Below are positions 2,490-50,354 of a stretch of 64,000 nucleotides of DNA, piece after piece (the first letter of the stretch is position 1; every line of letters starts with the position of its first letter). The DNA lies in NCBI GenBank assembly GCA_964550845.1, contig CAZKAD010000001.1, positions 21,342-85,341 of the forward strand. The letters run 5' to 3'. The position numbers and the translations under genes are program-made. The notes beneath the pieces were generated by a model. The model saw nothing but the letters and a program-made list of their open reading frames with translations. It did no database searches and was not told where the DNA came from. The DNA comes from an uncultured Gammaproteobacteria bacterium (GTDB lineage Bacteria; Patescibacteriota; Patescibacteriia; Magasanikbacterales; UBA922).

Positions 2490-2732
2490 ATGCAGTGCTC
2501 TTCACGACAAGTAGATCGAATCGTACTCAAACGATTAAGAAATCTCGATCGAAGTGTCTGTTGTATTCCAAAAGAATGTTCCTTTTTTCCAGATCGAGTG
2601 TTGTACATTATGACCGATTGGAGGGGAAATATTCGCAAACAAATATGGGTATTTGCAGATAAATTTGAATATCAAAATCGGAGATATCCGACTGTCGATA
2701 AATTACTCAAAGCAATTCATAGGGAATTATAA
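2490..2732 (+). CDS. small hypothetical protein (80 aa)
   Basis: The ORF ends immediately before terminator hairpin 2741-2764. A competing overlapping ORF 2477..2662 exists in another frame. Confidence 0.25.
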   Translation: MQCSSRQVDRIVLKRLRNLDRSVCCIPKECSFFPDRVLYIMTDWRGNIRKQIWVFADKFEYQNRRYPTVDKLLKAIHREL

Positions 2733-2740
2733 ACATCTTA

Positions 2741-2764
2741 TTTTTCACTCCAAGGAGTGAAAAA
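2741..2764. terminator. 3'-end palindromic hairpin TTTTTCACTCC-AA-GGAGTGAAAAA
   Basis: Perfect 11-bp inverted repeat between an upstream stop codon and the polB promoter, consistent with the mimivirus hairpin rule. Confidence 0.6.
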
Positions 2765-2769
2765 ATTGA
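2762..2769 (+). promoter_or_regulatory. AAAATTGA early-promoter octamer for polB
   Basis: Exact octamer 55 nt upstream of ATG 2824. Confidence 0.65.
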
Positions 2770-2823
2770 TCATTCTTTTTATTCTCAATTATATAAATAC
2801 CTCCTTCCAATTACCGTTTAAAA

Positions 2824-5781
2824 ATGTCACAGCTCACAACAGGAACTGCGTATATTTTTTCATGGTTTGCGGAAGATGACGGAATGATCCATGCATTCGG
2901 AATGACTCCAGAAAACGAAACTGTTCACTTAATTATTCTCAACTTTACTCGATATTGTTATATTGAATTACCTCCCGAAATTGACTGGGACAATCCAATT
3001 CATCAACGAAGTTTCCAAGAAGCTGTTGGATCAATGAATCAAGAAATTTATCCTCAACAAATGGTCTTTATGAAAAAGCATCGATTGTATCGAGCTCATA
3101 TGGTCAAAACCGATCAAGGTTATCAACGATGTTTATTCCCTTATCTTTTTGTTTGTTTCAAAACGCAAAAGGCAATGATTGATTTCACTCGTCGAGTTAG
3201 TTGGGGAATCTATATTGAATCAATTGGAAGAAAAATTAATTTACGTTCGCATGAACAAGACGCAAGTCCTTTTTTGCAACTCGCAGTTTGTCGCAACATC
3301 CCAATTACCGGTTGGATTGACTTCACTGGAGTGAAGCAATCCGATGACTGGAATAGCTCTTATTGTAAACATGAATATGTACTCAATTGGAATACACTGT
3401 CTGCTTCGAAAGACCAAAAATTGCTCAAGACTTTGCCCAAAGTTAAAATCGTTTCTTTTGATTGGGAGGCAAACTCAACCAATCATAATCGAATGCCAAA
3501 TGAAAAGAAGCCCGGAGATGTCTTGTTTCAATGTTCGATGAGTGTGTTTGAACATGGATCGGATAAAATCGAAAATCATCTTTTGACTCTTGGTTATCCT
3601 GATCCAGCGAAAGTAAGTGAAGGAAGAACCGATCCAGTCAAAATTCATCACTACGCAACTGAAGCTGACATTTTGGAAGGATTTGCCAAAATGATCATTG
3701 AGCTCGATCCACAAGTGATTACCGGATACAATATCATGGGCTGGGATTTCAATTATATGATTGCCCGCGCTAAACTAAACAATGTCTATCAATCATTTTC
3801 CCAATTTGGATACATCAAAGGAATGTCTGCGAAAGAAAAGAACATTACCTGGTCAAGCTCCGCATTTAGCAAACAAAGTTTTTCTTATCCTGCAATTGCC
3901 GGACGAATTATTATTGACATGCTTCCTGTGATTAAAAGAGGGTTTAAGTTTGCCAGTTACACGTTGAGTAATGTTTCAGTTGAAATCCTCGGGCCGAATC
4001 AAACCAAGGATCCTCTCACTCCACAAGGCATTTTCAAATGCTTTCAAATTGGATCACCTGAGACACTATCGATAGTAGGCAAGTATTGTGTGAGAGATTC
4101 CGAAGTCACTTCGTTTCTGTTCCAAAAACTCAAGACTTGGGTTGACAGCTGTCAAATGTCAAGTATTATGGGTGTTCCGATCTTTGATCTTTCGACACAA
4201 GGACAACAAGTTAAGATTTACGCTCAAATTTATCGAGATTGTTTTCTTAAGAATACGGTCGTTGAAAAGAATGGCTATGTCTGTGAAAAAGACGAGAGTT
4301 ATACCGGTGCAATCGTGTTGACACCTATTCCAGGTCTTCATGAAAATGTGGTTACGTTTGATTTCGCCAGTCTGTATCCATCAGTAATTGTGGAAAAGAA
4401 TATTTGTTATTCGACTTGGGTGATTGATCCAAATATTCCAGATGAAGATTGTCACGTACTTGAATGGGAGGATCATATTAATTGTCCTCATGATACCGAA
4501 AAAAGATCCGACAAAAAGAAAGTGATGTGTGCGAAACGTAAATATCGATTTCTTAAGACTCCGCAAGGAATTTTGCCAAATATTCTCACGCGATTGACTG
4601 CTGAAAGAAAGAAAGTGAAGAAAGAGCTCGAGGGGGTTGAAGAAAAGGAGAAGGAAGAAAAAGATCCTATGTTGAAGAAAGATTTGAAGATGTATGCAAC
4701 CATTCTTGACATGACTCAAATTGCAATTAAAACTGTATCCAATAGTATGTATGGTGTGATGGGTGTTACCGAAGGCCGACTGCCTTTTATGCCAGGTGCA
4801 ATGTCGACTACCGCTGGTGGTCGAGCTGCAATTATGAAAGCGAAGAAAATCATCCTTGATCGTCATCCTGGCAAAGTTATTTATGGTGATACCGATTCGT
4901 TGATGTATATCTTCGATGATATGAAGCGTTTCGAAGATGAAAAGGGGAAGATCGATTACAAAGCTCTTGAAAAGTTCTGCAACAAAGTGTCAGAGGAAAT
5001 CTCTTGTCACTTTGCAAAACCGATGAAACTCGAATTTGAAAACATTGCGGAACAATTCTTTATTTTAACCAAGAAAAGATACATTTCAAAACTCAGTAAT
5101 GGAAAAGTTAAAAAGCGAGGTATCATGTTAACTCGACGAGATAACGCCGCTTGCTCGAGAAAAGCTTATGAAGGATTGCTTAATCTTATCTTTCAAAAGG
5201 CACCCCTGGATAAAATTTTTGACTATATTGTTGAAGCTCTCAATCAAATCTATAGCCATTATTACCCAAGCAAAGATTATGCAATCACAAAGAGTATCAA
5301 AGACATCGATACTTACAAAGTCAAAGCTCTTTCAACCGAACTAGTCGCTCGTCAACGACAATTGAAGAATAAGTTTCTTCCTTATGTTGAACCAAACAAT
5401 CCACAGGCCTCGAAGATCGAAGATGAATACAAATTTCGATCTTTGCCAGCCCATGTTCAGTTGGCTGAAACAATGAGATCAAGAGGGTCAATTGTTGAGT
5501 CTGGAAGTCGATTTGCTTATGTAGTGACTACTAAAGGTGGTCCTTCGGGAAAAATGTGGCAAAAGATCGAAAGTCTTGAATATTATTCTCGTCATCAGGG
5601 AATGATCAATTTAGATAGCAATTACTATGGCAAGGCCCTGATTAATCCGTTTGATGAAGTACTTCAAATCATGTTCCAACGACAAAATTTTACTAAACAA
5701 CAACACAAAATTCGTCTGCAAAAATATGAGATGCTCCAAGAGCTGAAGAGATTGATGGCTCCTCAACTTATTGCTGAATAA
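2824..5781 (+). CDS. polB: family B DNA polymerase
   Basis: Exo motif FDWEA. Pol motif A DFASLYPS, motif B KTVSNSMYG and motif C YGDTDS. 985 aa, contiguous, no intein. Confidence 0.95.
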   Translation: MSQLTTGTAYIFSWFAEDDGMIHAFGMTPENETVHLIILNFTRYCYIELPPEIDWDNPIHQRSFQEAVGSMNQEIYPQQMVFMKKHRLYRAHMVKTDQGYQRCLFPYLFVCFKTQKAMIDFTRRVSWGIYIESIGRKINLRSHEQDASPFLQLAVCRNIPITGWIDFTGVKQSDDWNSSYCKHEYVLNWNTLSASKDQKLLKTLPKVKIVSFDWEANSTNHNRMPNEKKPGDVLFQCSMSVFEHGSDKIENHLLTLGYPDPAKVSEGRTDPVKIHHYATEADILEGFAKMIIELDPQVITGYNIMGWDFNYMIARAKLNNVYQSFSQFGYIKGMSAKEKNITWSSSAFSKQSFSYPAIAGRIIIDMLPVIKRGFKFASYTLSNVSVEILGPNQTKDPLTPQGIFKCFQIGSPETLSIVGKYCVRDSEVTSFLFQKLKTWVDSCQMSSIMGVPIFDLSTQGQQVKIYAQIYRDCFLKNTVVEKNGYVCEKDESYTGAIVLTPIPGLHENVVTFDFASLYPSVIVEKNICYSTWVIDPNIPDEDCHVLEWEDHINCPHDTEKRSDKKKVMCAKRKYRFLKTPQGILPNILTRLTAERKKVKKELEGVEEKEKEEKDPMLKKDLKMYATILDMTQIAIKTVSNSMYGVMGVTEGRLPFMPGAMSTTAGGRAAIMKAKKIILDRHPGKVIYGDTDSLMYIFDDMKRFEDEKGKIDYKALEKFCNKVSEEISCHFAKPMKLEFENIAEQFFILTKKRYISKLSNGKVKKRGIMLTRRDNAACSRKAYEGLLNLIFQKAPLDKIFDYIVEALNQIYSHYYPSKDYAITKSIKDIDTYKVKALSTELVARQRQLKNKFLPYVEPNNPQASKIEDEYKFRSLPAHVQLAETMRSRGSIVESGSRFAYVVTTKGGPSGKMWQKIESLEYYSRHQGMINLDSNYYGKALINPFDEVLQIMFQRQNFTKQQHKIRLQKYEMLQELKRLMAPQLIAE

Positions 5782-5833
5782 TTTTCTTTTCGAAGAAAGT
5801 TTAACTTTTTTCTTTTTCTCGTTCAGAAAAAGA

Positions 5834-7060
5834 ATGGGTGCAATTACATCAAACAATAAATTGACCGCAGCTGGAGCTCTCGATCTACAACAAAAACTTT
5901 ACGAAGTTCGAGAAAGTCTCAAGCAGAAATTCAAATATTCTGAAATTAAGTATTCAGATCTTGCTACAGATCCAGAAATATTTCGACAATATGAGGGTGG
6001 TCGATTCGAAATACATATTTTAGCCACTGTTAATAAGGGAGGAAAACCTTATGTTCTTCACACCCTTCTTCCCGATTTACGTGACGTTGAAGGATACAAG
6101 AATATTTTTTTGAGTTACATTCAAATTATTGAACAAGTTCAGCCTTATGTTTCGAAAACTTATCTCCCGGTGATGAAAGGATGGACTGTTATGAAGTATA
6201 ACATTGACGATCATGATATTTTTCTCCCTGCAATTGTGTATGAACCATTTGTTATAACTGATTCAGTCGCAAGTTGGGAAAGCGCGGAATTAACACCATA
6301 CAGCTGTCAAGATGTTTATCAATTTGCGATTAAATCATTTCAAACTTTGATTGTAACTAGAAATCTAAAAGCAGGTTGTCATTTCTCTCGATTTGCGACT
6401 TTCTTTGCTCTTAATGGAAAAGGACTTGTTATGCTTCCGGGCAAACCTTGTAACCAAGGAGCCAATAAATGTGATCAGGACTATTTTAATGATAAAAGTC
6501 CGGCTGCAATTGATGAAATTAATGATATTACTTATCTACTTATTCAATTGATGGTTGGAAATGGGGCAAATCAGTTCATCCAAAAAATAAGCTCTAACAC
6601 TAATCAAATCAATCAAGGAAAACAATTTCTCTCGCAACATGTTGGAAAACTTTGTCAATTGCTGCTCGAGCCTCTTCTCCAAACCGACATTTCAAATATC
6701 TATACTCCGGAAGCATATCTCGAGTATCTCCGATCGAAACCAGTTCTAGACATGTTCACCAAAGTCAGTGGAATTGAACAGACAGACGAAGATGTGCAAA
6801 AAATTGCCCAAGATCTCGCGCTAATTAAATCTGTAAATCAAACTGCATTTCAAGAATATTGTGGTTCTCGAGAACCTTTGAGAGAAGTACTCCGATCGAT
6901 GTTGAAATGTCTCGGAGAAGCAGACAAAACTTTATCTGCGGATGAAAAAGTCAAATTGATTAAGCAGATGATTTCAGATTCAAAAGTTAATCTTTTTGCC
7001 GTTTGCTACAAAGGCGAGGAACTCGAACAAGAAATATCCAATTTGGCAAACCAAGAATAA
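5834..7060 (+). CDS. hypothetical protein with N-terminal MGAITS (N-myristoylation consensus)
   Basis: First ATG after a TTG-started track ORF. MGxxxS at the N-terminus. No other motifs. Confidence 0.55.
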   Translation: MGAITSNNKLTAAGALDLQQKLYEVRESLKQKFKYSEIKYSDLATDPEIFRQYEGGRFEIHILATVNKGGKPYVLHTLLPDLRDVEGYKNIFLSYIQIIEQVQPYVSKTYLPVMKGWTVMKYNIDDHDIFLPAIVYEPFVITDSVASWESAELTPYSCQDVYQFAIKSFQTLIVTRNLKAGCHFSRFATFFALNGKGLVMLPGKPCNQGANKCDQDYFNDKSPAAIDEINDITYLLIQLMVGNGANQFIQKISSNTNQINQGKQFLSQHVGKLCQLLLEPLLQTDISNIYTPEAYLEYLRSKPVLDMFTKVSGIEQTDEDVQKIAQDLALIKSVNQTAFQEYCGSREPLREVLRSMLKCLGEADKTLSADEKVKLIKQMISDSKVNLFAVCYKGEELEQEISNLANQE

Positions 7061-7115
7061 TAATCTAGCAAAAAATTCAACTTTTTCTTTTTCTTTTCTT
7101 TCCAGAAAAGAAATC

Positions 7116-8768
7116 ATGGCGAATGTAAGTATTTACGATCTTTCTTTCAAAGGAAAGGAAAAACAGACCGGATGGTTTGGAGGAGAAACAATCGCAGAAA
7201 TTGACTCTGGACTCCAAATTACAAGCAAACAAGTCCTTCCGAATGAACAAATCTACAAGGCAGTGAAAAAAGTTCCTTCTGATAAGACTCTTCCAGATGA
7301 CTTTGTTGTCCAAGTTTTTTTTACCTTTGATGAACAAAGCTTTATTCGAAACAAGAATGCTGTCCGAATGATGAAGAAAATCAGTGACAATATGGCACCA
7401 AACGGATTTTATTCAATGCCCTCGTTACCTTTTGTCTATTCTTTCTATCCAAATGATCGTCAAGTGAATCAAAGGACCAATACTACCTACGCAATCATGA
7501 AACCTATCCCAATGTGGAGGCATATTCTCGACACTTCAACGCGAAAATTCCACTGGTTTATGTTCAATGCGCTTTCCACTTTGTTCTATCTTCACAAGCT
7601 CGGAATCATTCACCGAAATATCTCTCCCGACAGTGTCTACTTTGTAACTGACTCGAATGATAATCCTTCGATTTTTATTCATAATTTTGCTTCTGCTTGC
7701 TGGATGAATGATCAAACCGATTTAACCCAGATTGTGAAGTGTAATGAAACTGCTCCACTCCTCGACTACATCGATCCAGTCCTTCTTCCGAAGAGTCGAG
7801 TTCAACTTCAAAAGCTGCAACAACAAGCAGCGAGTAATTTGAGTGAGGCAAGAAAAAAGGAACTTATTGGTCAAATTGACCAGGCTCAGGCAGAATTCAA
7901 TAAGAAAAAGAATGATTTCAATGCGGCTGGAAAAGGAAATCAGATCCAGAATGACCCCAGTATGAAAGTGTTAAGGGAAAAAATTGGTAGATTGAGGGGA
8001 GAACTTGGCGGAGCTCCTCCGCGAGATGTACGTGATAATCAGGCGACTTATGCTCCATTCACTGACAAGTCTGATGTCTACGCAATGGGAATGTTATTTT
8101 ACCAAATTGTGACACAAGGAATTGGTTATGAAAACCAAAATCGTGATCCTTGGGATGAAGCTCTCGCTTCAAATATTGATTTTCCTCAAAATCAAGACAA
8201 GATTTATGCCTCAAGAAAATTGAGATTATCGCGATCAAATCTTGATGCCAGACTCCAAAATTTAATTCTCAAGATGATTCACCCAAATCCAGCACAACGC
8301 TGTGATGCTGAAGAGGGTCTTTTACAATTGATTGTTTCCGCGCCTGGTGCAATTGAGGAAAAAGTTGCCCAATTTAGAATCTCAAATATGGAAGGAGAGC
8401 CACAACGAGCAATTATGAGATTTCTTGGATCTCAATCTCATCCAGAAATTCCCAATTCGAACGAAGGTACGTTGGCTAAAAGAATGCAATTAAAATGGTC
8501 AGACATCGATCAACAAATTCAAAACAGTGAAGAGGCTGCGAATAAGTATGGTTCGATTCGAGAGCGAAAATTTAGTCCTGAACAACAAGGATCTTCATGG
8601 GGACAAGGTTTTTATAAGGCCGGTTTGGCTGCTGCACCTCTCGCAGTACCAGCCGCCGTAGCTGTATTTAATCCATTTGCTGCAGGTGCAATGGTTGCCG
8701 GAGCGGGTTTAATCAAAGTTCACGATCGGTTTCAACAGAAATTGTCACAACGATGGAGAAAAGGATAA
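7116..8768 (+). CDS. divergent protein-kinase-like protein (possible pseudokinase) with coiled-coil and Gly/Ala-rich hydrophobic C-terminus
   Basis: HRNISPDSV in place of HRDLKPxN, NFA in place of DFG, and DVYAMGMLFYQIV like subdomain IX. Upstream hairpin 7089-7112. Confidence 0.55.
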   Translation: MANVSIYDLSFKGKEKQTGWFGGETIAEIDSGLQITSKQVLPNEQIYKAVKKVPSDKTLPDDFVVQVFFTFDEQSFIRNKNAVRMMKKISDNMAPNGFYSMPSLPFVYSFYPNDRQVNQRTNTTYAIMKPIPMWRHILDTSTRKFHWFMFNALSTLFYLHKLGIIHRNISPDSVYFVTDSNDNPSIFIHNFASACWMNDQTDLTQIVKCNETAPLLDYIDPVLLPKSRVQLQKLQQQAASNLSEARKKELIGQIDQAQAEFNKKKNDFNAAGKGNQIQNDPSMKVLREKIGRLRGELGGAPPRDVRDNQATYAPFTDKSDVYAMGMLFYQIVTQGIGYENQNRDPWDEALASNIDFPQNQDKIYASRKLRLSRSNLDARLQNLILKMIHPNPAQRCDAEEGLLQLIVSAPGAIEEKVAQFRISNMEGEPQRAIMRFLGSQSHPEIPNSNEGTLAKRMQLKWSDIDQQIQNSEEAANKYGSIRERKFSPEQQGSSWGQGFYKAGLAAAPLAVPAAVAVFNPFAAGAMVAGAGLIKVHDRFQQKLSQRWRKG

Positions 8769-11829: not shown

Positions 11830-12678
11830 ATGGTTCCCGCTCCCTTCAAAAGGTACACCATTACTTTTACTGTGGCAACCAACTGGACTATTAATCATGT
11901 TCTTTTCTTCTGGAAACATGACTTTCCAAAAATACAAGACATGTCAAATGTTCCTCTTGGTACAATTCTTTCATTGAAATACAAAGATGAAAATGGCCAT
12001 GTTCATCATCGAGGTCATGGAAAGAGCAATGATAAATGTTTTTCTAATACTACTTCTGTGAATGTTTTTGTTGGAAAAGTTATCAATGTTAAACTTCCAT
12101 CATTCGGTAAGATTCAAATTACCGGATGTCTCGAGGAGAGTCAAGCATATAAGGGAGTTCATGCAATTTGGAAAGCAATTCAAGCAATCGAAGAAAAGAA
12201 TCCTGGTTTTTGTAAATTACCTCCAGATGAACCACCAAAAATTATTTTCAATCCCGTGATGAACAATGTGAGTGTAAATATTGGTTTTGAAGTGAATCGA
12301 CAAAAGTTACAGACATTCTTGTATAGATGCAAAGAAATGGATTTCATTCTTCCGACCAAAGATGAGAGATATGCAGGAACAAAAGTAGAGACAAAAATTC
12401 AAGACATTTCTCATATTCCGCTGGTTAAACAAAGATTTCTCCAAGGAAAATGGTATTCTTCAAATGCGACCATGAATGACTTTCTAGCTCTCTTGAATGC
12501 AAAAAGTCGAAAAGAAGAGAGTCGAAAGACTCATCAACATGTCATTCTTATTTTTCATTCAGGTAAATTGATTTATATTGCTCCTCGATTTGAACTAATG
12601 CCGAAATTCTATGACTTTTTCCTCAAGCTCCTTCATGAGCATCGAAATGAAATTGAAGAAACTTGTCAAGCGCATTAA
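11830..12678 (+). CDS. hypothetical protein (282 aa)
   Basis: Long ATG ORF whose stop lies in a CATTAAAC context followed by TTAAAC-family repeats. Confidence 0.5.
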   Translation: MVPAPFKRYTITFTVATNWTINHVLFFWKHDFPKIQDMSNVPLGTILSLKYKDENGHVHHRGHGKSNDKCFSNTTSVNVFVGKVINVKLPSFGKIQITGCLEESQAYKGVHAIWKAIQAIEEKNPGFCKLPPDEPPKIIFNPVMNNVSVNIGFEVNRQKLQTFLYRCKEMDFILPTKDERYAGTKVETKIQDISHIPLVKQRFLQGKWYSSNATMNDFLALLNAKSRKEESRKTHQHVILIFHSGKLIYIAPRFELMPKFYDFFLKLLHEHRNEIEETCQAH

Positions 12679-16274: not shown

Positions 16275-18797
16275 TCAAAATTCATTTTGAATTGGTATCA
16301 CAATCACGGGATCTTTGATTGCAGCCATCTTTAGAATCCGAAGTTGAGACTCAAGATCCTTAATCTTCTTTTCATAATCAAGTTGACGTCGTTTGAAATC
16401 ACTGGTTGTTTCTTGGAGTTTAAGTTGATTATTTTTCAAACCGTCTTCAAGTGTCTTAACATGTTGTTTCTTTCCTTCAAGTTGAGACTTCAGTTCTTCT
16501 TCGACAATCGATAATTTTGAATACTTTTCATGGAGTTGAAGGAGTTCTTCTTTTGTCTTTGTATCTTCCTCGGTTGGTTTCCACGTTTTACTCATATTCT
16601 CACGAAGAGTATTGTTTTCATCACACAAGTTAGCCACTTTACCTCGAAGTCCAATATTTTCTTCTTCTAAAGTTTGAGTTCGAACATTTGCAAATTTAAT
16701 TGCTTGTTCGGCAGTCTCATCTTTCTCTTTTAGCAATAAATCGACTTTACTCAATTGTCCTTCGAGTTGAGCAATTTTATCGAGATAATTTGTTTGATTC
16801 GCTCGAAGAGATTCAATTTCGATTATCTTTTGATTCAAATCATCCTGGCAATGTCGAAGATCATCTCGTGAACGATCCGCAACAGATCGAATATTTTCAA
16901 TTTCATTTTTCACTAATGAAATACTTTTCTGAAGTTCAGTGACTAACGCAGTTTTACTGTCAAGTTCTTCAGCCATCTTTTGGAATTGATCAAGTGATTC
17001 TTCATAATTAGCTGGCGTGAGAGTCGGTTGAACAATCAAATTGTATTCTTTCTTAAAGTCTTTCACATCGATACCTTTCTTTTCACAAAGTTCAATTAGC
17101 TTATTAAGATCTTTAGTCAAAGCTGAAATAATGATTTGTTGAGTAGCAAGTTTTTCATTCGCTTCAAAGAGAAGACGTTTGTATTCTTCAACATTCATTT
17201 CAAGATTAACCACCGGTTTGTTCAAAATGGTTTGAGTAATAGCACCAAATCTCAGCGTTGAAAGAGTTTCTTCATAATTGAATTTCGCAGGTGAACAAGT
17301 AATTACCAAATGAGTTTTACTGTTTCCACCGAGGGAATCGGTCAAAAGACGAGTCAATTTTGAATCTCGATATGGAATGAAACTCTTTTTTTCAGCCAAA
17401 CTTCGAATCACCAATCCAAGAGTCAATAATGATTTGTTAGTTGAACTGGCTTGCTTCAACAGCAATCCTTCAGCCTTTGTTTTCGCTACCTTTTCAGATC
17501 CGGCCAAATCGACAAACACTATTCGCGAGATAATTTTCTTTCCAGTCTTCAGTTCATTTTGTTGAAGATGCATCACCAGTACTGAATGACTTCTCGACGA
17601 ATGAGCGTTCATCGCCGTTTCAGCAACTGTTCGATTCAATTCTCCCTTTCTCATTACACGGACAGCATCTTCAAAACAATTGACATAAGTTTCAGTCACA
17701 TCTTCAATCCATAATCCTCGGAAACGATCCTCACGAATCTTTAGGTCATCGCGAAGAGGTGAGAGCAGATCTCGAATTCGCTCGAGATAAATTTCAACAT
17801 ATGACATGCTAACCAAAAATTCATATCCTTTTTTCCCACGAATCGCGGTAAATAAATCTTTGATTAACCGTGGAACTACACCCATCTCAGTTTCGGTTTT
17901 CCAGAGTTCTCCCTCCTGAGACAGAGCATCGGGATTGTCTACCGATGCAGCGTATCCAGTCATTGTAGTAGTTTTTCCTGAATTATGTGTAATAGTTCCA
18001 TCGGCAAGCAAAAATCGTTCAGGACGATCTTTAATCGGTTCAAGTTGAAATCCTGAATACAACCCCATTCCAACATCTTCAATTTCGAATGAATAAGTTT
18101 CAAGGCCCTTCGAGGCCGGTTCAAGGCCCTTCGGGGTTGGTCCAATTTTCTTATCCTCTTTTCCGATCATTCGAACTCCAAGATAATCTTGTTTATTCTT
18201 TTGTTTCAATAGTTCCTTGACTGACATATCAATCAGCTTTGACTCAAATTGGAGTGTCAAAACGTGATCAAGATTCACCGTGTAAAAACTTTTCTTTTTC
18301 ACATCTCGAATTTTAAACATATGTGAAATTCCAGTAAACAACTTGATCACTTCTCGAACATTTCCTTTTTCGTCAACAAGTTTGTCACCGACTTGAACAT
18401 CTCGTGCTTGAATAATAGATCCATCGATCAGTAAGATTAGTGTCTCAGGAGAAAGGCATCCAGACTGACCATAAGCAAAGATAGTTGCATTGTATCCTTG
18501 AAGAATCTCATCAAGTAAAGGTTTACCAACAGCTTGATATACTTGTTCTTGAGTTGCTTTTTCTTCAAACACTTTGTCGTAATAATATCGATTATCTTTT
18601 ACCTCTTGTGGAAGATTAACAACGTTCCCATTCACCACAATCATTCGATTACCTCCATTTTTTAATTCCGTTTCATTACAAGGGCGAAATCGACAAAAAA
18701 CTTTAACATTTCGATCATCTCTTGGCTCTGTCTCATCCGATTTTTTAGACTCTGGTTTAGACTCTCGGGGAGAAAATGGTTTTGATTTTGCTTTCAT
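16275..18797 (-). CDS. kinesin-like motor protein with coiled-coil tail, interrupted by a mini-intein in the P-loop
   Basis: VKVFCRFRP and IFAYGQSG, then CLSPETLILLIDG...LLADGTITHN, then SGKTTTMTG. Switch I NAHSSRSHS and switch II DLAGSE. About 400 aa of heptad-rich tail. Confidence 0.9.
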   Translation of the reverse strand: MKAKSKPFSPRESKPESKKSDETEPRDDRNVKVFCRFRPCNETELKNGGNRMIVVNGNVVNLPQEVKDNRYYYDKVFEEKATQEQVYQAVGKPLLDEILQGYNATIFAYGQSGCLSPETLILLIDGSIIQARDVQVGDKLVDEKGNVREVIKLFTGISHMFKIRDVKKKSFYTVNLDHVLTLQFESKLIDMSVKELLKQKNKQDYLGVRMIGKEDKKIGPTPKGLEPASKGLETYSFEIEDVGMGLYSGFQLEPIKDRPERFLLADGTITHNSGKTTTMTGYAASVDNPDALSQEGELWKTETEMGVVPRLIKDLFTAIRGKKGYEFLVSMSYVEIYLERIRDLLSPLRDDLKIREDRFRGLWIEDVTETYVNCFEDAVRVMRKGELNRTVAETAMNAHSSRSHSVLVMHLQQNELKTGKKIISRIVFVDLAGSEKVAKTKAEGLLLKQASSTNKSLLTLGLVIRSLAEKKSFIPYRDSKLTRLLTDSLGGNSKTHLVITCSPAKFNYEETLSTLRFGAITQTILNKPVVNLEMNVEEYKRLLFEANEKLATQQIIISALTKDLNKLIELCEKKGIDVKDFKKEYNLIVQPTLTPANYEESLDQFQKMAEELDSKTALVTELQKSISLVKNEIENIRSVADRSRDDLRHCQDDLNQKIIEIESLRANQTNYLDKIAQLEGQLSKVDLLLKEKDETAEQAIKFANVRTQTLEEENIGLRGKVANLCDENNTLRENMSKTWKPTEEDTKTKEELLQLHEKYSKLSIVEEELKSQLEGKKQHVKTLEDGLKNNQLKLQETTSDFKRRQLDYEKKIKDLESQLRILKMAAIKDPVIVIPIQNEF
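17982..18458 (-). mobile_element. mini-intein (159 aa; Cys1 ... His-Asn, +1 Ser) inserted between G and S of the kinesin Walker A GQSG^SGKT
   Basis: Block A CLSPETLILLIDG and terminal THN followed by S. The flanking exteins rejoin to the canonical AYGQSGSGKTTTM. No endonuclease domain. Contains a GC-rich 15-nt duplication (GLEPASKGLE). Confidence 0.8.
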
Positions 18798-18855
18798 CAA
18801 AAGCGATTTCTTTTCTTTTCTTTTCTTTCAGTGGAAAAAAGCTTTCTTTTTCTTG

Positions 18856-18863: not shown

Positions 18864-18880
18864 TAATTTTTCCAGATAAA

Positions 18881-18948
18881 TTAAACATCCTAAAGAACCG
18901 GTTAAACATTCGAAAGACCGGTTAAACATTCGAAAGGAAAATTAAACA
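18881..18948. repeat. about 3.5 x 20-21-bp tandem repeat TTAAACATTCGAAAGACCGG
   Basis: Located in the divergent region between the kinesin start and the Atg8 start. TTAAAC-core family. Confidence 0.8.
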
Positions 18949-19383
18949 ATGAGTTGGGCCGATATGTTTCGTAAAGGGGGTCGATTTTCCGAGGCTCTTC
19001 AAAAGCTCGAACAAAAAAGTCTTGAACAAAGACGAGTCGAAATCAAAAAAATTACCTTTCGATCTCCAGATTCTACTCCAGTAATCGTGATTCCTGAAAA
19101 TGGAATTCGGTTAGACAAAATGAAATATGTTTGTCCATCTGATGTTGACGTTGGACGATTGAATTACATTGTGACAAAGAAAATTCAATCAGCAACTCCA
19201 AATACCGAAAGGGCCTACTTCTTCTTTACTGAAGGAAAGCAAATTCCTCCGACAAGTCAATTGATCAAGGATCTATGCGCAAAAAATAAAAATGAAGATT
19301 TTTCTCTCCATCTTTATTTAACAGCTGAAGAAACGTTTGGATTTTCTTTTCCCATCCAAAATGAACATCCAGAAAGTCTTTGA
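18949..19383 (+). CDS. Atg8/LC3/GABARAP-family ubiquitin-like protein
   Basis: PVIVIPENGIRLDKMKYVCPSDVDVG and FFFTEGKQIPPTSQLIKDLCAKNKNEDFSLHLYLTAEETFG align with Atg8 (KYLVPSDLTVG, FFFVNN.IPPTSA.M..LY.EH.DEDGFLY..YS.E..FG). A conserved Gly is followed by a 13-aa tail. Confidence 0.8.
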   Translation: MSWADMFRKGGRFSEALQKLEQKSLEQRRVEIKKITFRSPDSTPVIVIPENGIRLDKMKYVCPSDVDVGRLNYIVTKKIQSATPNTERAYFFFTEGKQIPPTSQLIKDLCAKNKNEDFSLHLYLTAEETFGFSFPIQNEHPESL

Positions 19384-21062: not shown

Positions 21063-22580
21063 ATGCAAGCTCTTCTTGATCAAATTGACGACTCAGTTCG
21101 TTCAATGGACGATGATATTCGAGTTTTGGTCGACAACCTTAAACAACTTAATACCGAAGATATTTTAGAAATACATCTTGATATCCTTTCGAAAAAGCTT
21201 TCCAACGTCCCAGACACTTTTGAGTCTCGAGATCAAGTGATTGAAGTTATTCTCGATTCATGTAAATATGCTGAAAAAATGCGGATTTTTAACGGTCATT
21301 CAAACGGAATTTACAACAACGTTTCGTATCCTTATGCAGTCGCAATTCAAACGATATGTTATTTTGACGTCTACGGAGAAATGACCAAACAAAGTTTGCT
21401 TGAATGCATTTCTTTTGTTGCTTTGTTGGAAGAACCTTCTTGTAGTGATGACTTGATCTCTGAATGGTATGAAGATAAAAAAGATATTCATCTCGAACAA
21501 TTTCAATATGCACTTCAATTTGCGTCGAAGATTCGAGACATTTATCTTCCTACACCAGATAGAGAGATTGGTTTATTCACTGGAGATTATCTCTCAGTTG
21601 AAGTTCACCAAAAAATAATCGAATTTCTGAAAAAGAATCGGTTTACTGACCGAGGATCTTATCTTGAATTACTTCCAGAAAAAGATCGTCAGGCATTTCT
21701 TGCTTTTTCGAGGATTACTCCACAATGGATAGCAAAAAGAGCTTTTGTACCTCATCAAGAAGATAAAAGTATGGAACAAGGTTCTCACGCACTTGTTCGA
21801 AGATGGATTGATCCTGAAACTCATGAATATTACGTTGTTAAAACATACGGAATTAATTCTGAATACAACGCTGGTCTTCGAGAACTTCTCGCATTTCATA
21901 TCTTTTCACATCCGAATATTATTCGATGTCATAGCTGGGCAGTGAATGAAGATTTTACTGCACTTCAATTTTTCCTCGAAGATGGAGGTGAAGAAGTGAA
22001 CAATAAATATACCAGTGTAAGATGGATCAAAAAATATGTTCCACAAATTCTTCGTGCTCTTCGTCACATTCATACTCGAGGTTTTGCTTATCGTGACTTA
22101 AAAATGTGTAATCTTGTCTTTCAGAGGGGAAAAGTGAAACTGATTGATCTTGGAATGATGAGAAGAACAGTTACTTTTGGAGGATCGAATGAAATGATGG
22201 CTTTCGGAGTCGGTCCAGCCGAAGTATTTGAAGGCAGAACCATTTATCCTGGTTCGGTTGATATTTGGTCACTTGGAATACTCATGTGTGTGCTGTACAA
22301 AAAGAATCTCGCTATTGGCTATGGTAAATGTAAGATTATGCCTCCTTGGAATAAAAGATCACGAATTCGAGTCTTGTGTATCAAGGATTTTCTTGAGATA
22401 CTGACCAAAGATGAATCCGAAGAACTTGAATCTTTTCAAGAGAAATATCCGGGCTATGGTAATGTCGCCTTTACCATTTCAGAAGTTCGTCATCAAAAAC
22501 TTCTCGCGTTGATTCGAAGATGCTTTCAAAAAGATTCCCCCACTGCTGGAGAACTACTTCGAGATCGATTCTTTCATTAA
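21063..22580 (+). CDS. serine/threonine protein kinase with N-terminal helical domain
   Basis: YVVKT, YRDLKMCNLV, IDLGMM and SVDIWSLGIL. Confidence 0.85.
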   Translation: MQALLDQIDDSVRSMDDDIRVLVDNLKQLNTEDILEIHLDILSKKLSNVPDTFESRDQVIEVILDSCKYAEKMRIFNGHSNGIYNNVSYPYAVAIQTICYFDVYGEMTKQSLLECISFVALLEEPSCSDDLISEWYEDKKDIHLEQFQYALQFASKIRDIYLPTPDREIGLFTGDYLSVEVHQKIIEFLKKNRFTDRGSYLELLPEKDRQAFLAFSRITPQWIAKRAFVPHQEDKSMEQGSHALVRRWIDPETHEYYVVKTYGINSEYNAGLRELLAFHIFSHPNIIRCHSWAVNEDFTALQFFLEDGGEEVNNKYTSVRWIKKYVPQILRALRHIHTRGFAYRDLKMCNLVFQRGKVKLIDLGMMRRTVTFGGSNEMMAFGVGPAEVFEGRTIYPGSVDIWSLGILMCVLYKKNLAIGYGKCKIMPPWNKRSRIRVLCIKDFLEILTKDESEELESFQEKYPGYGNVAFTISEVRHQKLLALIRRCFQKDSPTAGELLRDRFFH

Positions 22581-22655: not shown

Positions 22656-23144
22656 TTAAGCTTTCTCAATTCTTAACCTCAGCATATAAACAAATGGATT
22701 GCGTAAATCTTGAACTATTTCAAGCAGATCTTTTCGCCGCTGTTCAAATTCTGATATCTTGAAATTTGTATACTTCGAATCGAGAAAGTTGTCAAGAAAA
22801 TCGGCAAGTTTAATTAACAGTGCATCTTCAGAAAGAGATGGTATTTTCTTTTTCATGTAGGCAAGTTTACCTACTTGAGCAATTTCGATTGGATTGTTGG
22901 TCAATTCTTTCACCAGCTTCATTACACGTTCAGAAAATTTCTTCTGGAGTTCCTCTGGTGTTGTTTTAGTATCTTCAAGTGTATCATGGAGCAAGGCAGC
23001 AACTAAAACTTCTTCGTCTTGTATCCCTTCTTGTCGTAGAATTGATGCAACACTACAACAATGAATCTGATAAGACATTCCATTTCCTTTTCTTTTTTGA
23101 CCATCATGCTTTTCGACAATGAATTGCAAAGCTTTTTGAATCAT
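22656..23144 (-). CDS. HD-domain protein, MESH1/HDDC3-like (p)ppGpp hydrolase homolog
   Basis: ALQFIVEKHDGQKRKGNGMSYQIHCCSVASILRQEGIQDEEVLVAALLHDTLEDT matches the SpoT/RelA hydrolase signature (H.GQ.R..G.PYI.H...VA.IL......D...I.AALLHD..EDT). Confidence 0.7.
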   Translation of the reverse strand: MIQKALQFIVEKHDGQKRKGNGMSYQIHCCSVASILRQEGIQDEEVLVAALLHDTLEDTKTTPEELQKKFSERVMKLVKELTNNPIEIAQVGKLAYMKKKIPSLSEDALLIKLADFLDNFLDSKYTNFKISEFEQRRKDLLEIVQDLRNPFVYMLRLRIEKA

Positions 23145-23216: not shown

Positions 23217-24566
23217 ATGAAAGCTCGATTTTTAAAGTTGACTCTTATTCCAAATCCGGCAAACTATCGAACAAAATATATCAGTTACATGAGTCAAATC
23301 GCCGTTAAACTGAATATTGAAGATAATATTTTGATTGGTGCAATTGAACTTTTTGATCGACTGCCGTATATTTCCGAAGAATGTTCATTTTTGTTTGCGT
23401 TTGGATGTTTTTATTTAGCTGTACTTCTTTACGAAGGGGGCAACGACATTCGAGAAAAATTGCCTCGATGTTGCAAAGGTGTTTATGAAATTGGTGATTT
23501 GACCAAGATAGTAGATACTTTGGTGGTTGAAATCATGACATGGTTACCTGCACCTATTTATCCAAATAGCTTTTCAAGAGCCTATCATATCGTTACTGGA
23601 AAGCATTTAACGAAAGAAGAAGAACGCTCACTCGTTTTGATTTATCTTAAACAATCAAGTACTCTTGAATCAACTGAATTGAAAACTTTAGCTCTTCCTG
23701 AAAATCAACAAAAGAGAATCAAAGAATTTATGAATCAACCAAGTAAAAATTCTTTGTTTCAAGAGTATCATCCGGATTTTCAAAAAGGCAATTTGCTTGG
23801 ATCAGGTGAATGGGGTCGTGTTGTTGCTCATCCAAATGAATGGGGGAAAGTGATTAAAAAATCACTCAACAAAGAAGAAGCATATGAAACTTTTGTCCGA
23901 GAGATTGCACTGCTCTCTTCAATTAGTCACCCTCACATTATTAAAATGCACGGATGGAGTTACAATGAAGGCAAATTTTATCTCATTCTCGATAAAGGAA
24001 TACCAATTAAATTAACTTCAAGAACAATTCAACAAGAGGGATCTAAACTTCTTCGAGCTCTTGATCATCTTCATTCACAAGGATTTATTCATCGCGACTT
24101 GAAACCAGATAATATATTGTATGTGAATGAAAATATTACTCTTTGTGATTTCGGGATTACTAGAACTCAAGCAAGACGAGGATTGACTGGTATGAGAGTG
24201 CCAGCTGCAAATATCCCTCCCGAAATGCTTAAACAAAGAAAATACAATTACGATTCTGCAGTCGATATTTGGGCTTTCGGATTGTTAGTTGCCTGGATGG
24301 TTAAAGATTTTATTTTTAGTGATATTGTCGAAGATAAGGATAGTCATCATAAAATTCAAATGCAAATAATTGGATTCAAGACTGGTTACAAATTTCCAGA
24401 TAAACAACACACTCCGAGATATTCCCTTCATGACATTGAGAACGAAGACGCAAGAGACTTAATTGAAAGATGTCTGACTGATTGTCCACAACAAAGACCG
24501 AAAGCGAAAGATTTAATTAATCATCCTTTTTTAACCAGTCCCGAAGGGACGTTTAAGGCAAAGTAA
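23217..24566 (+). CDS. serine/threonine protein kinase with about 190-aa N-terminal (possibly cyclin-like) domain
   Basis: GSGEWGRVV, VIKK, HRDLKPDNIL, DFG and DIWAFGLL. Confidence 0.85.
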   Translation: MKARFLKLTLIPNPANYRTKYISYMSQIAVKLNIEDNILIGAIELFDRLPYISEECSFLFAFGCFYLAVLLYEGGNDIREKLPRCCKGVYEIGDLTKIVDTLVVEIMTWLPAPIYPNSFSRAYHIVTGKHLTKEEERSLVLIYLKQSSTLESTELKTLALPENQQKRIKEFMNQPSKNSLFQEYHPDFQKGNLLGSGEWGRVVAHPNEWGKVIKKSLNKEEAYETFVREIALLSSISHPHIIKMHGWSYNEGKFYLILDKGIPIKLTSRTIQQEGSKLLRALDHLHSQGFIHRDLKPDNILYVNENITLCDFGITRTQARRGLTGMRVPAANIPPEMLKQRKYNYDSAVDIWAFGLLVAWMVKDFIFSDIVEDKDSHHKIQMQIIGFKTGYKFPDKQHTPRYSLHDIENEDARDLIERCLTDCPQQRPKAKDLINHPFLTSPEGTFKAK

Positions 24567-47116: not shown

Positions 47117-50100
47117 TTAACAGATCTTGTTTCGAATTCCTTTAACCAAGGGATCATTTGGACCGAAAATTCGGTGAATCACGTTTCCTTGACCAACTCT
47201 TCCGACTGTTTCGTAGTGATTATTGTCTCGATAAGAAACTAACACAATGCTTGGTCTTCCTTCGGTATAACTACAATCAACTGGAATTGGTTTTCCATCT
47301 TCATCAAGCAAATAGATATCATGGCGAATAAATTCAGACAAAATTTCAAGTACTTCGAGACCAACTTCATTGCCACTCGTTCCAAGATTATCAATGAAAT
47401 TTGCATACGCTTCTTGTTCGGCGAGCTCAAAGATTTTCTTCAAATCAAGCAAACCTCCAGCAGACAAATCTTTTCGAAGAGCTTGTAGTTGAAATGTATT
47501 TTCGAGTTCTTTTTTGTAAACTTCGATCATCTTTGATTGAAGAACTTTATCTTGTTCAAGACGAAGTAAATATTTTTCAAGCTGATATTGATTTCCCATC
47601 ATTGCAACCAAATTGGCTCGACGGCCAAGAAAACCTTCGTTTTTATTGGTCAAATAATAGTGAACAATTGAGTCAAAGCCTGGAACTTTTCTTCCAAATC
47701 CCATTCGTGCAATTCTTCCTTCTCCAACTTTCTTCCATTGGGCAATTGGAATGTTGACTGTTTTTCTCCAATTTTTGACGAACTCTTTCTTCTCATCGTC
47801 TTTCATTTTACGATAATCGATACTTAATGCTGTCTGTAAGGCATGGAAGAAATCATTTCCATCTACAAGAGTACCTGTACGAACCAATCCTTTCTCTTCA
47901 AGAACGATACTGTATACTTTATTCTTTCCAGGGTCAATTGGTTGAAGCGCAAGATCTTCTTGGATATTTACTCCACGAGCAAATCCGGTCAACGGATAGT
48001 AACTTTCTCGAACAAAGAGGAAAGATCGATACAGTCGAGCAAGTTGTTGTTCTTCAGGATCGAGCCATATCGGAGGTGAAAAGATCTCACTCTTTTCAAG
48101 TTTGAATCCGATTGTTTTCATTTTGTCGACGAAGTAATCCCAGTCAACAAGATATTCAATTTGCGTCTCAGCGACTGTCTGACTTCCTTTGTATTGATAT
48201 TCAAGTCCCTTGTTAAATAGAATATTTCCGGAAAATGGTTGATACAATCTCTTCAAAGTCACATTTCCAAGCTGGACAATCCCCTTTTCAAGTATTCGCC
48301 GAGTCGCTTGTCCATCAATGGTGGTTCCAAGGAAATATCCATTTTTCTCAACACTTTCATCAAGTGTTTGAAGAAGACCGTTGAGTGGATCTTCGTTTTC
48401 AAAGAAGAATGACAGCACAAAGAATGAAGTGGCAACTTGGACACGAGATCCGCGCAAAGCTTTCACAATTGTTTCAGTATCTTGCGCTCGAGCTTGAATA
48501 TCAATCAAATTTAGTCGTTGATTGCGAAATTCCATTTCGCTTGCTCTTTGTTTCAATTCGAGGAGAAACTCCGGATTTGGTTCAATTGCAATCAGTCTCG
48601 CTACATGAGCAGTGTAATATTTCATCAAATCTCCTCCTTTTCCAGAACCCAGATCAAGGATAGTTCTTTCGGGGCAGTACAGATTAATCAATTCTCGTTT
48701 AATCGTATTGCTAAACTTACGGAAAGCATCTCGATCTGAACTTTGTTTCAAGGCATTAATTAGTTCTTGTTCGGTGAGAGGATTTTGAATATCAATCCAA
48801 ACGTCTTTTGCAATGTCAACGTAATTTGGTTCAGTTTTATCTGGACGTGCCTTCACCAGTTCAAAAGTTCCGTTGTGCCAACGATATTCTCCAATCTTTG
48901 GAGGATAAAATTTGCTGCGAATGGTACCACGAAAGCCAGGAGGTGTAAAATGAATCAAACCATTTTTACCACCAACCATCAAATTGTACATTTCACCATA
49001 GACTTTCACTGCTGCAAAATCAATGGTCAATTCGTGGACTGGTTTCCACTTATAAGTATGGAAATTTAAATAAGGTTCTGCAATTGGAGTGAGAATTAAA
49101 CCATCATAATTAGGATTATTTCGAATCTCGTTCAACAATTGTTCAGTGTCTTCGGCAATTTGATAAGTCATGAAAAATTGTTTCTTAATGATATCAACAT
49201 CACGCAGACTATTGACCAATTGCTCAATGTATTCAAATCTCTTATCAAGAGTCAATTGACGGACATCTCGATCATGAAGGCAAATCATATCAAAGATATG
49301 AACTTGATTCTTAAAGAATTCACAATCAAAGATTGTTCCATCAAGATCTTCACGAATCTTACTTCGAAAGAGTTCGATGTTACCTTTCATTCCAGCCAGA
49401 AAAAGTTTTTGATCTGTAATAATCCCAATCATCCGCACTCCATTTAATTTTTTAGTCACTGCGTAGGCAGAGAGGTTTAAATTCCATCGTTTCAAATTGA
49501 TCGGTTGAGGAAGACCACGTTTGAACAAAACTGATTCGTCGAACTTTGCGCCATCTTGTTGTTTGAAAAAATTATTAAAGAAGCGAAGTGCGACTTTTGT
49601 ATCAACATTAATCTTCTCTTTGAGAGCATCAAAAGAAGCCCAGATCAACTTAAGTGGCATAAAGAAGGTTTTCAAATCAATATTCTTTGAAAAATATTCA
49701 ACTTCAACTTCATAACTCTCTTGAGTTGAAGTCATCTCAATTGAATGTGAAGCATCCTTAGCAAAGAAAGTAACTCGAGATTTTTCACGAGTCATTTGAA
49801 TTGATCCTGGTTCATCTTGAGTAGGTATTTCCTCTGAAGTGACTAAGTCGATCTTAATAGTATATTCTCCTTGAACTCGATCAAACAAAGTGAATCTCGA
49901 CTTCATCATTTTCCTCACTTTGGTTATTGGTACGTTATCAGTTAAAACTTCTTCAATTCGGATATTATTATCTGACAATTGTGCAAATGTCTTGGAAAAT
50001 TTCCCCTGTTGATAGAGATCAGAATCAGTAATAATTTTGAGTAGCCACATCCATCTCTTTTGATCAGCATTCGGAAATCCAGCCTGAGCTTTACCTTGAT

Positions 50101-50239: not shown

Positions 50240-50354
50240 TGCTTTTATTTCGAGAAAGAAAAAGGAAGATTTCAATTTTCTTTGGAAAAGTGAAAATGGA
50301 TCTTATTTTAGTCTTAATCCTTGAACAGACTTTATATCGAGATTAAGACTAAGA

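Follow-up and report, generated by a model that had tools for sequence, protein, structure and literature searches.

A candidate mini-intein in the Walker A motif of a kinesin-1-like motor gene from a giant-virus-like contig

Introduction

A kinesin gene in a 64,000-nucleotide stretch of contig CAZKAD010000001.1 (hereafter the window, meaning this stretch at its full length) raises the question of how a motor may work when its ATP-binding loop, the Walker A motif or P-loop, is split in frame by 159 additional residues. The computational analysis reported here indicates that the insert is very likely a canonical class 1 mini-intein that has lost its homing endonuclease, resides in the Walker A motif of a giant-virus kinesin-1-like motor, and would excise itself from the precursor to give a working P-loop.

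P-loops are a well-documented hotspot of intein insertion, as exemplified by DnaB-b, MCM-a, and RFC-a (PMC4760082), and viral kinesins are known, being particularly prevalent in Imitervirales (PMC10583209, PMC9732441). A kinesin intein has been published for Anaeramoeba, a eukaryote (Gallot-Lavallee et al., PNAS 2023, PMC10710043), in a paper that calls cytoskeletal intein hosts a new category, describes the spread of inteins between the P-loops of unrelated proteins, and proposes Nucleocytoviricota as intein vectors. This was the only kinesin intein that we found in the searchable literature, in which no published viral kinesin intein was found, and a 2026 catalogue paper on metagenome-assembled genomes from giant viruses (GVMAGs) mentions neither inteins nor kinesin. 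A viral kinesin intein thus appears to be undescribed in print, though present in public data, including 2020-era GVMAGs.

Results and Discussion

An in-frame insert splits the P-loop of a kinesin-1-like motor

The insert comprises 477 nt that lie in frame between G113 and S273 of an 840-aa kinesin, and its junctions read NATIFAYGQSG / CLSPETLILLIDG...(159 aa)...LLADGTITHN / SGKTTTMTG (a slash marks a junction here and below). The upstream extein sequence GYNATIFAYGQSG is followed by the insert start CLSPETL, and downstream, DGTITHN is followed by SGKTTTMTGY. The Walker A motif GxxG/xGK[ST] is thereby divided between its residues 4 and 5, with the codons of Cys1, Asn159, and Ser+1 at 18456-18458, 17982-17984, and 17979-17981, respectively. 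An earlier reading of the window's letters (the original prediction) had placed an insert in the kinesin Walker A motif at exactly the coordinates given in Table 1 and had proposed that its excision restores GQSGSGKTTTM; both statements held, since the in silico deletion of the insert gave this sequence, and GQSGSGKT is the exact P-loop of 13 of the 120 nearest kinesins. The guanine plus cytosine (GC) content of the intein is 37.7% and that of the exteins 36.7%, and this closeness suggests that the element has long been resident.

The host gene is otherwise that of an ordinary motor, with the motor domain at the N terminus, followed by a coiled-coil stalk and an IAK-like tail that ends in ...VIVIPIQNEF. 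An alternative TTG start at 18800, one codon upstream of the ATG, would extend the open reading frame (ORF) to 16275..18800 and the protein to 841 aa. The Pfam Kinesin model (PF00225) matched with an E-value of 3.7e-95, and the match was broken into two stretches flanking the insert. Switch I (NAHSSRSH), switch II (DLAGSE), the neck, the long coiled coil, and the tail can all be read in the translation of the C-extein. The protein therefore has the P-loop, SSRSH, DLAGSE, N-terminal motor, and coiled-coil stalk of a kinesin-1-like motor, the P-loop being whole only once the insert is removed. Among named proteins, its closest homologues are the kinesin heavy chains (KIF5; 44-45% identity), and its nearest relatives are kinesin-1-like metagenome proteins with identities of 59-66%.

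Table 1. Positions of the kinesin gene, its candidate intein, and viral hallmark genes in the window.
Feature	Position	Strand	Description	Basis
Kinesin precursor gene	16275..18797	minus	840 aa, ATG at 18797	ORF listing and translation
N-extein	18459..18797	minus	Residues 1-113, ending ...IFAYGQSG (first half of Walker A)	Translation; alignment to intein-free P0001, P0002, and P0015
Candidate class 1 mini-intein	17982..18458	minus	159 aa, HINT fold, without endonuclease	Pfam, PDB sequence search, relatives, AlphaFold2, Foldseek
Block A	18420..18458	minus	C1-LSPETLILLIDG; Cys1 as predicted first nucleophile	Matches PI-SceI CFAKGTNVLMADG residue for residue; C1 invariant in A2
Block B	18252..18287	minus	FYTVNLDHVLTL; N62 and H65	H65 and L67 invariant, N62 nearly invariant in A2
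Variable linker	18099..18170	minus	Intein residues 97-120, MIGKEDKKIGPTPKGLEPASKGLE	Alignment A3; pLDDT
Tandem duplication	18099..18140	minus	21 nt, in frame, PTPKGLE/PASKGLE	Copies 18099-18119 and 18120-18140, 18/21 identical
Block F	18006..18068	minus	MGLYSGFQLEPIKDRPERFLL	Alignments A1 and A2; aligned to PI-SceI YYGITLSDDSDHQFLL
Block G	17979..18005	minus	ADGTITHN (H158, N159) and Ser+1 of the C-extein	H158 and N159 invariant in A2; sequence read directly
C-extein	16275..17981	minus	SGKTTTM... (second half of Walker A) to stop codon	Translation; Pfam Kinesin profile positions 85-327
Family B DNA polymerase (PolB)	2824-5781	plus	985 aa	
mRNA capping enzyme	47117-50275	minus		
RPB1	54051-56987	plus	978 aa	

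The insert has the sequence motifs and predicted fold of an intein

The 159 residues alone matched the Pfam model Hom_end_hint (PF05203) with 44.2 bits against a curated cut-off of 32.1 (E = 3e-11), and the best matches in a sequence search of the Protein Data Bank (PDB) were PI-SceI, which is the VMA1 intein (E = 7e-5), and then fungal Prp8 inteins. When 1.84 billion representative proteins were scanned exhaustively with HMMER, 2,414 of them matched the intein at E <= 1e-3 (83 at E <= 1e-10), the best at 1.4e-21 with approximately 42% identity. A word-indexed homology search gave no match with the intein alone and two fragments only with the kinesin-intein alignment.

When the window intein was aligned with 25 related mini-inteins (alignment A2, 26 sequences), all six invariant columns, C1, H65, L67, G136, H158, and N159, were found to be kept in it. 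Its block B reads N62-L-D-H65, an NxxH variant of TxxH that is common to the aligned relatives and that we take to be the form present in PI-SceI as well. Block F can be aligned (GLYSGFQL...RFLL) and keeps G136 and L150, but it has Glu at the place of the His of its relatives and contains a 4-aa insert. The Cys1, block A pattern, terminal His-Asn, and +1 Ser named by the original prediction are thus all present, and blocks A, B, F, and G, which it had left to be defined by alignment, can each be aligned to PI-SceI and to the 25 mini-inteins.

An AlphaFold2 model based on the 26-sequence alignment, which was needed for a confident model, had a mean predicted local distance difference test score (pLDDT) of 90.5 and a predicted template modeling score of 0.84, with values above 90 in the HINT core; the single-sequence model reached a pLDDT of 33.6. 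With this predicted model as the query, the top Foldseek matches in the PDB were 6mx6, 6mwy, and 1gpp (E = 8e-11 to 2e-10). There were 62 matches at E <= 1e-3, and among those listed, most were inteins, with a few HINT domains lower down; the non-intein matches were the Hedgehog autoprocessing domain and bacterial intein-like domains. Matches in BFVD were to intein-bearing proteins of klosneuviruses, pithovirus-like and marseillevirus-like metagenome-assembled genomes (MAGs), and phages.

Among solved structures, PI-SceI from Saccharomyces cerevisiae is the best sequence match, and its domain I (1gpp) is also a top structural match. The block A alignment is gap-free (CFAKGTNVLMADGSI against CLSPETLILLIDGSI), and in blocks F and G, FELQEL..YYGITL....HQFLLANQVVVHN of PI-SceI aligns with FEIEDV..LYSGFQL....ERFLLADGTITHN. 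PI-SceI is, however, a 454-aa protein with a LAGLIDADG endonuclease and Cys+1, whereas the window intein has 159 aa, no endonuclease, and Ser+1. We also considered whether the VMA1 intein occupies the same Walker A position, and rejected this because alignment to 9cop_A and 1jva puts the VMA1 junction at VG/CGER. The Prp8 mini-inteins of Cryptococcus neoformans and C. gattii (6mx6, 6mwy) were the top structural match (E = 8e-11, target-normalised TM score of 0.81; sequence match E of approximately 1e-3) and resemble the window intein in size and in being HINT domains that naturally lack an endonuclease and belong to the eukaryotic/viral intein pool; they differ in their host, the spliceosomal Prp8, in their insertion site, and in sequence (approximately 24% identity).

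The absence of a homing endonuclease, as claimed in the original prediction, was borne out: Pfam detected Hint models alone in the insert at E <= 1, with neither LAGLIDADG domain (PF05204/PF14528), and the model consists of one HINT domain and one 13-residue disordered loop. No second copy of the intein family was detected in the window by the family profile, and no free-standing homing endonuclease was present among the ten ORFs neighbouring the kinesin.

Kinesins with and without an intein at the same site

When the spliced motor was used as the query, 7,828 kinesins were retrieved, and the P-loops of the 120 best were checked. All but two were uninterrupted (GQTSSGKT in 51, GQTGSGKT in 31, GQSGSGKT in 13, and others), including the nearest full-length relatives, P0001-P0018 (59-66% identity, approximately 650 aa). 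The two interrupted proteins, P0019 and P0029, are split at the identical point. P0029 reads GQTG/CLDPDT...142 aa...TVTHN/SGKTHTM; P0019 ends at a contig edge, yet keeps ...GRFLIHDGTITHN/SGKTTTMTG. P0019 is the kinesin closest to that of the window (72% motor identity), and the two inteins are 57% identical over the 55 aa available. On the other hand, P0001 and P0002 are 68% identical to the window kinesin and free of inteins, and P0019 is 82% identical to the intein-free P0002. This patchy presence among close kinesins is what mobile inteins typically show.

Twelve further kinesins with the same junction were found among the 150 best intein representatives, with intein lengths of 138-384 aa, so that the same-site set comprises P0019, P0029, P0152, P0157, P0161, P0164, P0165, P0168, P0181, P0183, P0198, P0249, P0266, and P0269. 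A junction-specific scan of IMG/VR added three cases from a different kinesin subfamily (L091-L093), two of which are on published giant-virus MAG contigs (GVMAG-M-3300023174-150 and GVMAG-M-3300009068-46). The junction-specific pattern was required for this, since among IMG/VR loci with a ...THN/[ST]GK junction, the best 80 included no kinesin. IMG/VR contained no close relative of the whole kinesin protein, and the exact protein, read from either of its two start codons, had no entry in the assembly index. At least 17 other kinesins on virus-like metagenomic contigs, including the two published GVMAGs, therefore carry an intein at this site, which answers the question put by the original prediction of whether other viral kinesin homologues share the insert. 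The rarity that it implied for kinesin inteins was overstated, given that same-site examples are common in metagenomic and GVMAG data and that the Anaeramoeba precedent has been published. The host contigs are dense, intron-free, and virus-like, among them one of 48.8 kb from JGI and one of 37.6 kb from GenBank with a histone doublet, dUTPase, and Rpb6.

These metagenomic inteins share with that of the window the insertion point YGQTG/C...N/[ST]GK[ST] and the family, at 35-41% identity. Many are 240-384 aa long and carry LAGLIDADG, whereas the window intein has 159 aa and does not. The motif LLAGIIDGDG is visible in the endonuclease-bearing ones, and the Pfam model Hom_end (PF05204) matched P0152 with 25.8 bits against a cut-off of 21.1 and P0161 and P0165 more weakly, below the cut-off. 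Compared with the other kinesin inteins, that of the window is divergent in its longer linker, its tandem duplication, and a 4-aa insert in block F.

The view that the insert is no intein at all, but a kinesin loop peculiar to this lineage or an artefact of assembly or chimerism, is refuted by these results and has nothing in its favour beyond the bare existence of an insertion. The Pfam, PDB, fold, and catalytic-residue evidence all contradict it, as do the inteins at the identical site on independent contigs from other samples; moreover, the composition of the insert matches that of the host gene, and the insert is absent from close orthologues. The mini-intein interpretation of the original prediction is thus supported.

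As a separate observation, L091 (3644-6541) and L093 (7566-10388) encode kinesins of the other subfamily (HIPFRDSKLTxILKESLGGNSKT) with endonuclease-bearing inteins at the same P-loop site, and their inteins end in Arg-Asn (..NVLRN/SGKSHTM), not His-Asn.

The linker and its GC-rich duplication

In an alignment with P0152, P0198, and P0266 (alignment A3), the endonuclease of the relatives is inserted right after a conserved K-G-[IV], which is the site of the linker in the window intein. The pLDDT falls below 50 only at intein residues 103-115, which are predicted to be disordered. The original prediction had drawn attention to a GC-rich direct duplication in this region as atypical of the genome. 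The duplication was confirmed: TTCAAGGCCCTTCGRGG is present at 18099-18115 and again at 18120-18136, with no further copy in the window and 0.01 chance matches expected. The duplicated segment has a GC content of 64%, whereas the window averages 36%; it lies approximately 4 standard deviations above this mean and ranks within the top 0.07% of 42-nt windows. It is equalled in GC richness by seven other places in the window, and its own richness arises from its Pro/Ala/Gly content and minority codons (CCG, GGC, GCC, and TCG), doubled by the duplication. The closest intein, that of P0019, has merely KTLEGN where the duplication stands. The duplication was probably a slippage event in an unconstrained linker loop, and is better read in this manner than as a feature of separate interest.

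Proposed splicing reaction and points that weigh on it

The gene would be translated as a single 840-aa precursor with its ATP-binding loop split by an 18-kDa domain and, because the phosphate-binding loop is split, the precursor would be incapable of acting as a motor or ATPase. That the intein splices is our inference, based on the conservation of its catalytic residues and on a host motor that is otherwise intact. The reaction would start with an N-S acyl shift at Cys1, assisted by Asn62 and His65 of block B, to form a thioester with Gly-1, which Ser+1 would attack to give a branched ester by transesterification. Asn159 would then cyclise with the assistance of His158, thereby releasing the intein, and an O-N shift would produce a Gly-Ser peptide bond. 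The expected product is a 681-aa kinesin in which Gly113 is joined to Ser273 and the GQSGSGKT P-loop is intact. This mechanism appears to be entirely conventional.

Several observations weigh against this interpretation. In block F, DGNHRFLL of the relatives is replaced by EPIKDRPERFLL, in which Glu takes the place of His and four residues are inserted in a lineage-specific manner, and two of the nine nearly invariant positions of alignment A2 differ (G29D and D31K); in view of these changes, splicing could be slow or impaired. The kinesin is also an accessory gene, in which a non-splicing insert would be more easily tolerated than in PolB. Furthermore, in a crude neighbour-joining tree of the splicing domains, the window intein is on a long branch. 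It shares no more than 46% identity with any relative of full length, and in this poorly resolved tree, it is as near to topoisomerase II and helicase inteins as to those of kinesins.

Carried to its end, the first part of this argument would make the insert a decayed, non-splicing relic, with the kinesin inactivated or kept for an ATPase-independent function, and the expanded linker with its recent duplication as well as the status of the kinesin as a non-core viral gene would fit such decay along with the block F and near-invariant changes. We nevertheless regard this as very improbable. Every invariant catalytic position is kept, no stop codon breaks the frame in 2.5 kb, and the HINT core was modelled with high confidence. 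Since the motor motifs and the tail resemble those of the orthologues, selection appears to act on a motor that is obtainable by splicing alone. The block F His is, moreover, not obligatory in the family because P0019, which has the closest related intein, and P0249 both have Gly in its place.

A different possibility concerns timing. Conditional splicing has reportedly been suggested for the intein in the P-loop of DnaB from mycobacteria, and the window intein might likewise serve as a post-translational switch or timer that holds the viral kinesin ATPase off until a redox, temperature, or partner-protein cue is received. The insert is in the catalytic P-loop, so that activity would be gated by splicing, the same site is occupied in many independent viral kinesins, and P-loop inteins have been argued to be selectively retained and able to sense stress (PMC4760082, PMC6195587). 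However, Cys1 is the sole cysteine of the intein, which leaves no obvious intramolecular disulfide trap, close orthologues thrive without an intein, and patchy presence together with endonuclease-bearing relatives suits a selfish homing element. A regulatory switch is therefore improbable.

Origin of the mini-intein and its wider family

The ancestry of the window intein would be sought in a family of LAGLIDADG-bearing inteins that occupy the same kinesin site in other giant-virus-like genomes and also the Walker A motifs of helicases and other ATPases. Its simplest history would be the usual intein cycle, with invasion by an endonuclease-bearing intein, fixation, and the loss of the endonuclease to leave a disordered linker, in which the 21-nt slippage duplication would have occurred later. 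We infer that the endonuclease was lost rather than never present; in the same-site relatives that carry one, it stands at the position of the linker. That the ancestor was specifically a kinesin intein with an endonuclease is plausible, although the low identity noted above and the absence of a clear kinesin grouping do not favour it. Without an endonuclease, the intein would no longer home alone; endonuclease-bearing relatives in co-infecting viruses could keep pressure on the site, an idea that has been put forward for the inteins of Bodo saltans virus (PMC5871332).

The insertion sites of the wider family were surveyed in 140 related inteins with both ends mapped. The junction G/xGK[ST], as seen in the window kinesin, was found in 26, GxxxxGK/[ST] in 32, other ...GK/ junctions, mostly Walker A-like, in 39, and GQFG/[ST]R of topoisomerase II in 20. 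Among the proteins interrupted at exactly this Walker A position are SNF2/ResIII/DEAD helicases, helicases of the PIF1 and UvrD types, and an AAA ATPase. In the neighbour-joining tree, the kinesin inteins cluster in part (P0152, P0266, P0157, P0029, and P0181, at 50-62% identity), and the tree and the identities are compatible with non-allelic spread among P-loops.

A tentative and rather doubtful extension is that giant viruses hold a pool of inteins with LAGLIDADG endonucleases that recognise Walker A-coding DNA and jump non-allelically between unrelated nucleoside triphosphatases (NTPases), namely, kinesin, SNF2/DEAD, PIF1, and UvrD helicases, and AAA and packaging ATPases, with viral kinesins forming a bridge to eukaryotic cytoskeletal genes (the Anaeramoeba kinesin and dyneins). 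This possibility is suggested by the 26 of the 140 inteins at G/xGK[ST], by approximately 70 more at GK/[ST], by their unrelated hosts, and by the window intein being no closer to the other kinesin inteins than to those of topoisomerase II or helicases. Among packaging-ATPase-like proteins, we also observed eight (P0130, P0133, P0135, P0141, P0188, P0254, P0125, and P0127) with two inteins in one Walker A motif, three residues apart (GKPG/intein/TGK/intein/TTL).

The site class is well known, and a eukaryotic precedent of a kinesin intein has been published. DnaB (site b), MCM (site a), and RFC-S (site a) inteins similarly lie inside the Walker A motif of an NTPase and make ATP binding dependent on splicing; the likeness is one of site, and their hosts are bacterial or archaeal replication proteins, in contrast to a eukaryote-type cytoskeletal motor in a virus. 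The Anaeramoeba kinesin intein is comparable by host protein, its insertion site being absent from the accessible text of the paper (PMC10710043), and resides in a eukaryotic nuclear gene rather than a viral one; P-loop cluster 1 of that paper is described as class 3, whereas the window intein belongs to class 1. What is new is a viral cytoskeletal motor as host and the finding that giant-virus kinesins repeatedly harbour inteins at this site, some with an endonuclease and others without.

This finding extends the viral intein hosts to a cytoskeletal motor, and viral kinesin inteins at a defined site provide a concrete, testable link for a giant-virus origin of the Anaeramoeba inteins. Intein-free, endonuclease-bearing, and endonuclease-less alleles in closely related viral genes form a natural series that may be used to study the homing cycle and the possible non-allelic spread among P-loops. 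On the practical side, the element is a compact mini-intein of the Cys1/Ser+1 type.

Giant-virus context and neighbouring genes

Judged by its gene content, the window is from a giant virus (Nucleocytoviricota), as the original prediction had assumed: it contains the hallmark genes for PolB, the mRNA capping enzyme, and RPB1 (Table 1), and its GC content is approximately 36% throughout. On a MAG contig of 368 kb (GCA_964602595.1), the gene of the orthologous intein-free kinesin P0015 and that of PolB are separated by approximately 3 kb, in an arrangement much like that of the window. The two loci are reciprocal in their inteins: in the window, PolB is intein-free and the kinesin has an intein, whereas on the 368-kb MAG contig (L003), PolB (2643-6992; 1,449 aa) contains an intein and the kinesin has none. 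The RPB1 ORF of the window covers Pfam domains 1-4, with domain 2 matched in two stretches, and the first 64 positions of domain 5, followed by an acidic Ser/Asp tail; the C-terminal half is not adjacent, and the gene seems to be split or truncated.

Three ORFs with protein kinase domains lie within 20 kb (21063-22580, 23217-24566, and 6996-8768, all on the plus strand), together with an HD-domain protein at 22656-23144 (minus strand) and a weak TBP-like match at 11830-12678.

Vesicles bearing LC3 are transported by kinesin-1. Next to the kinesin gene, at 18949-19383 on the plus strand, the window encodes a 144-aa ubiquitin-like protein of the ATG8/LC3 family (Pfam PF02991, E = 2.3e-16), which retains an ...ETFG processing motif followed by a 13-aa tail and is transcribed divergently from the kinesin. 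The pairing of an ATG8 homologue with a kinesin-1-like motor is suggestive; an Atg8 encoded by a virus has been described in PelV-1 (PMC12338748). The kinesin tail (..PVIVIPIQNEF, 16275-16322, minus strand) and the tail of the ATG8 homologue (..FSFPIQNEHPESL, 19327-19383, plus strand) have PIQNE in common, with 13 of 15 nt identical, which we judged to be a probable coincidence because the match is short and the kinesin part is its conserved IAK-like tail. The divergent promoter region of 148 nt between the two genes includes a TTTCT run (4.4 copies) at 18807-18828 and, in the intergenic region 18874-18948, a 20-nt tandem repeat, TTAAACATTCGAAAGAACCGG (2.7 copies, 91% match, 18881-18936), which may be a shared regulatory element of the kinesin and the ATG8 homologue.

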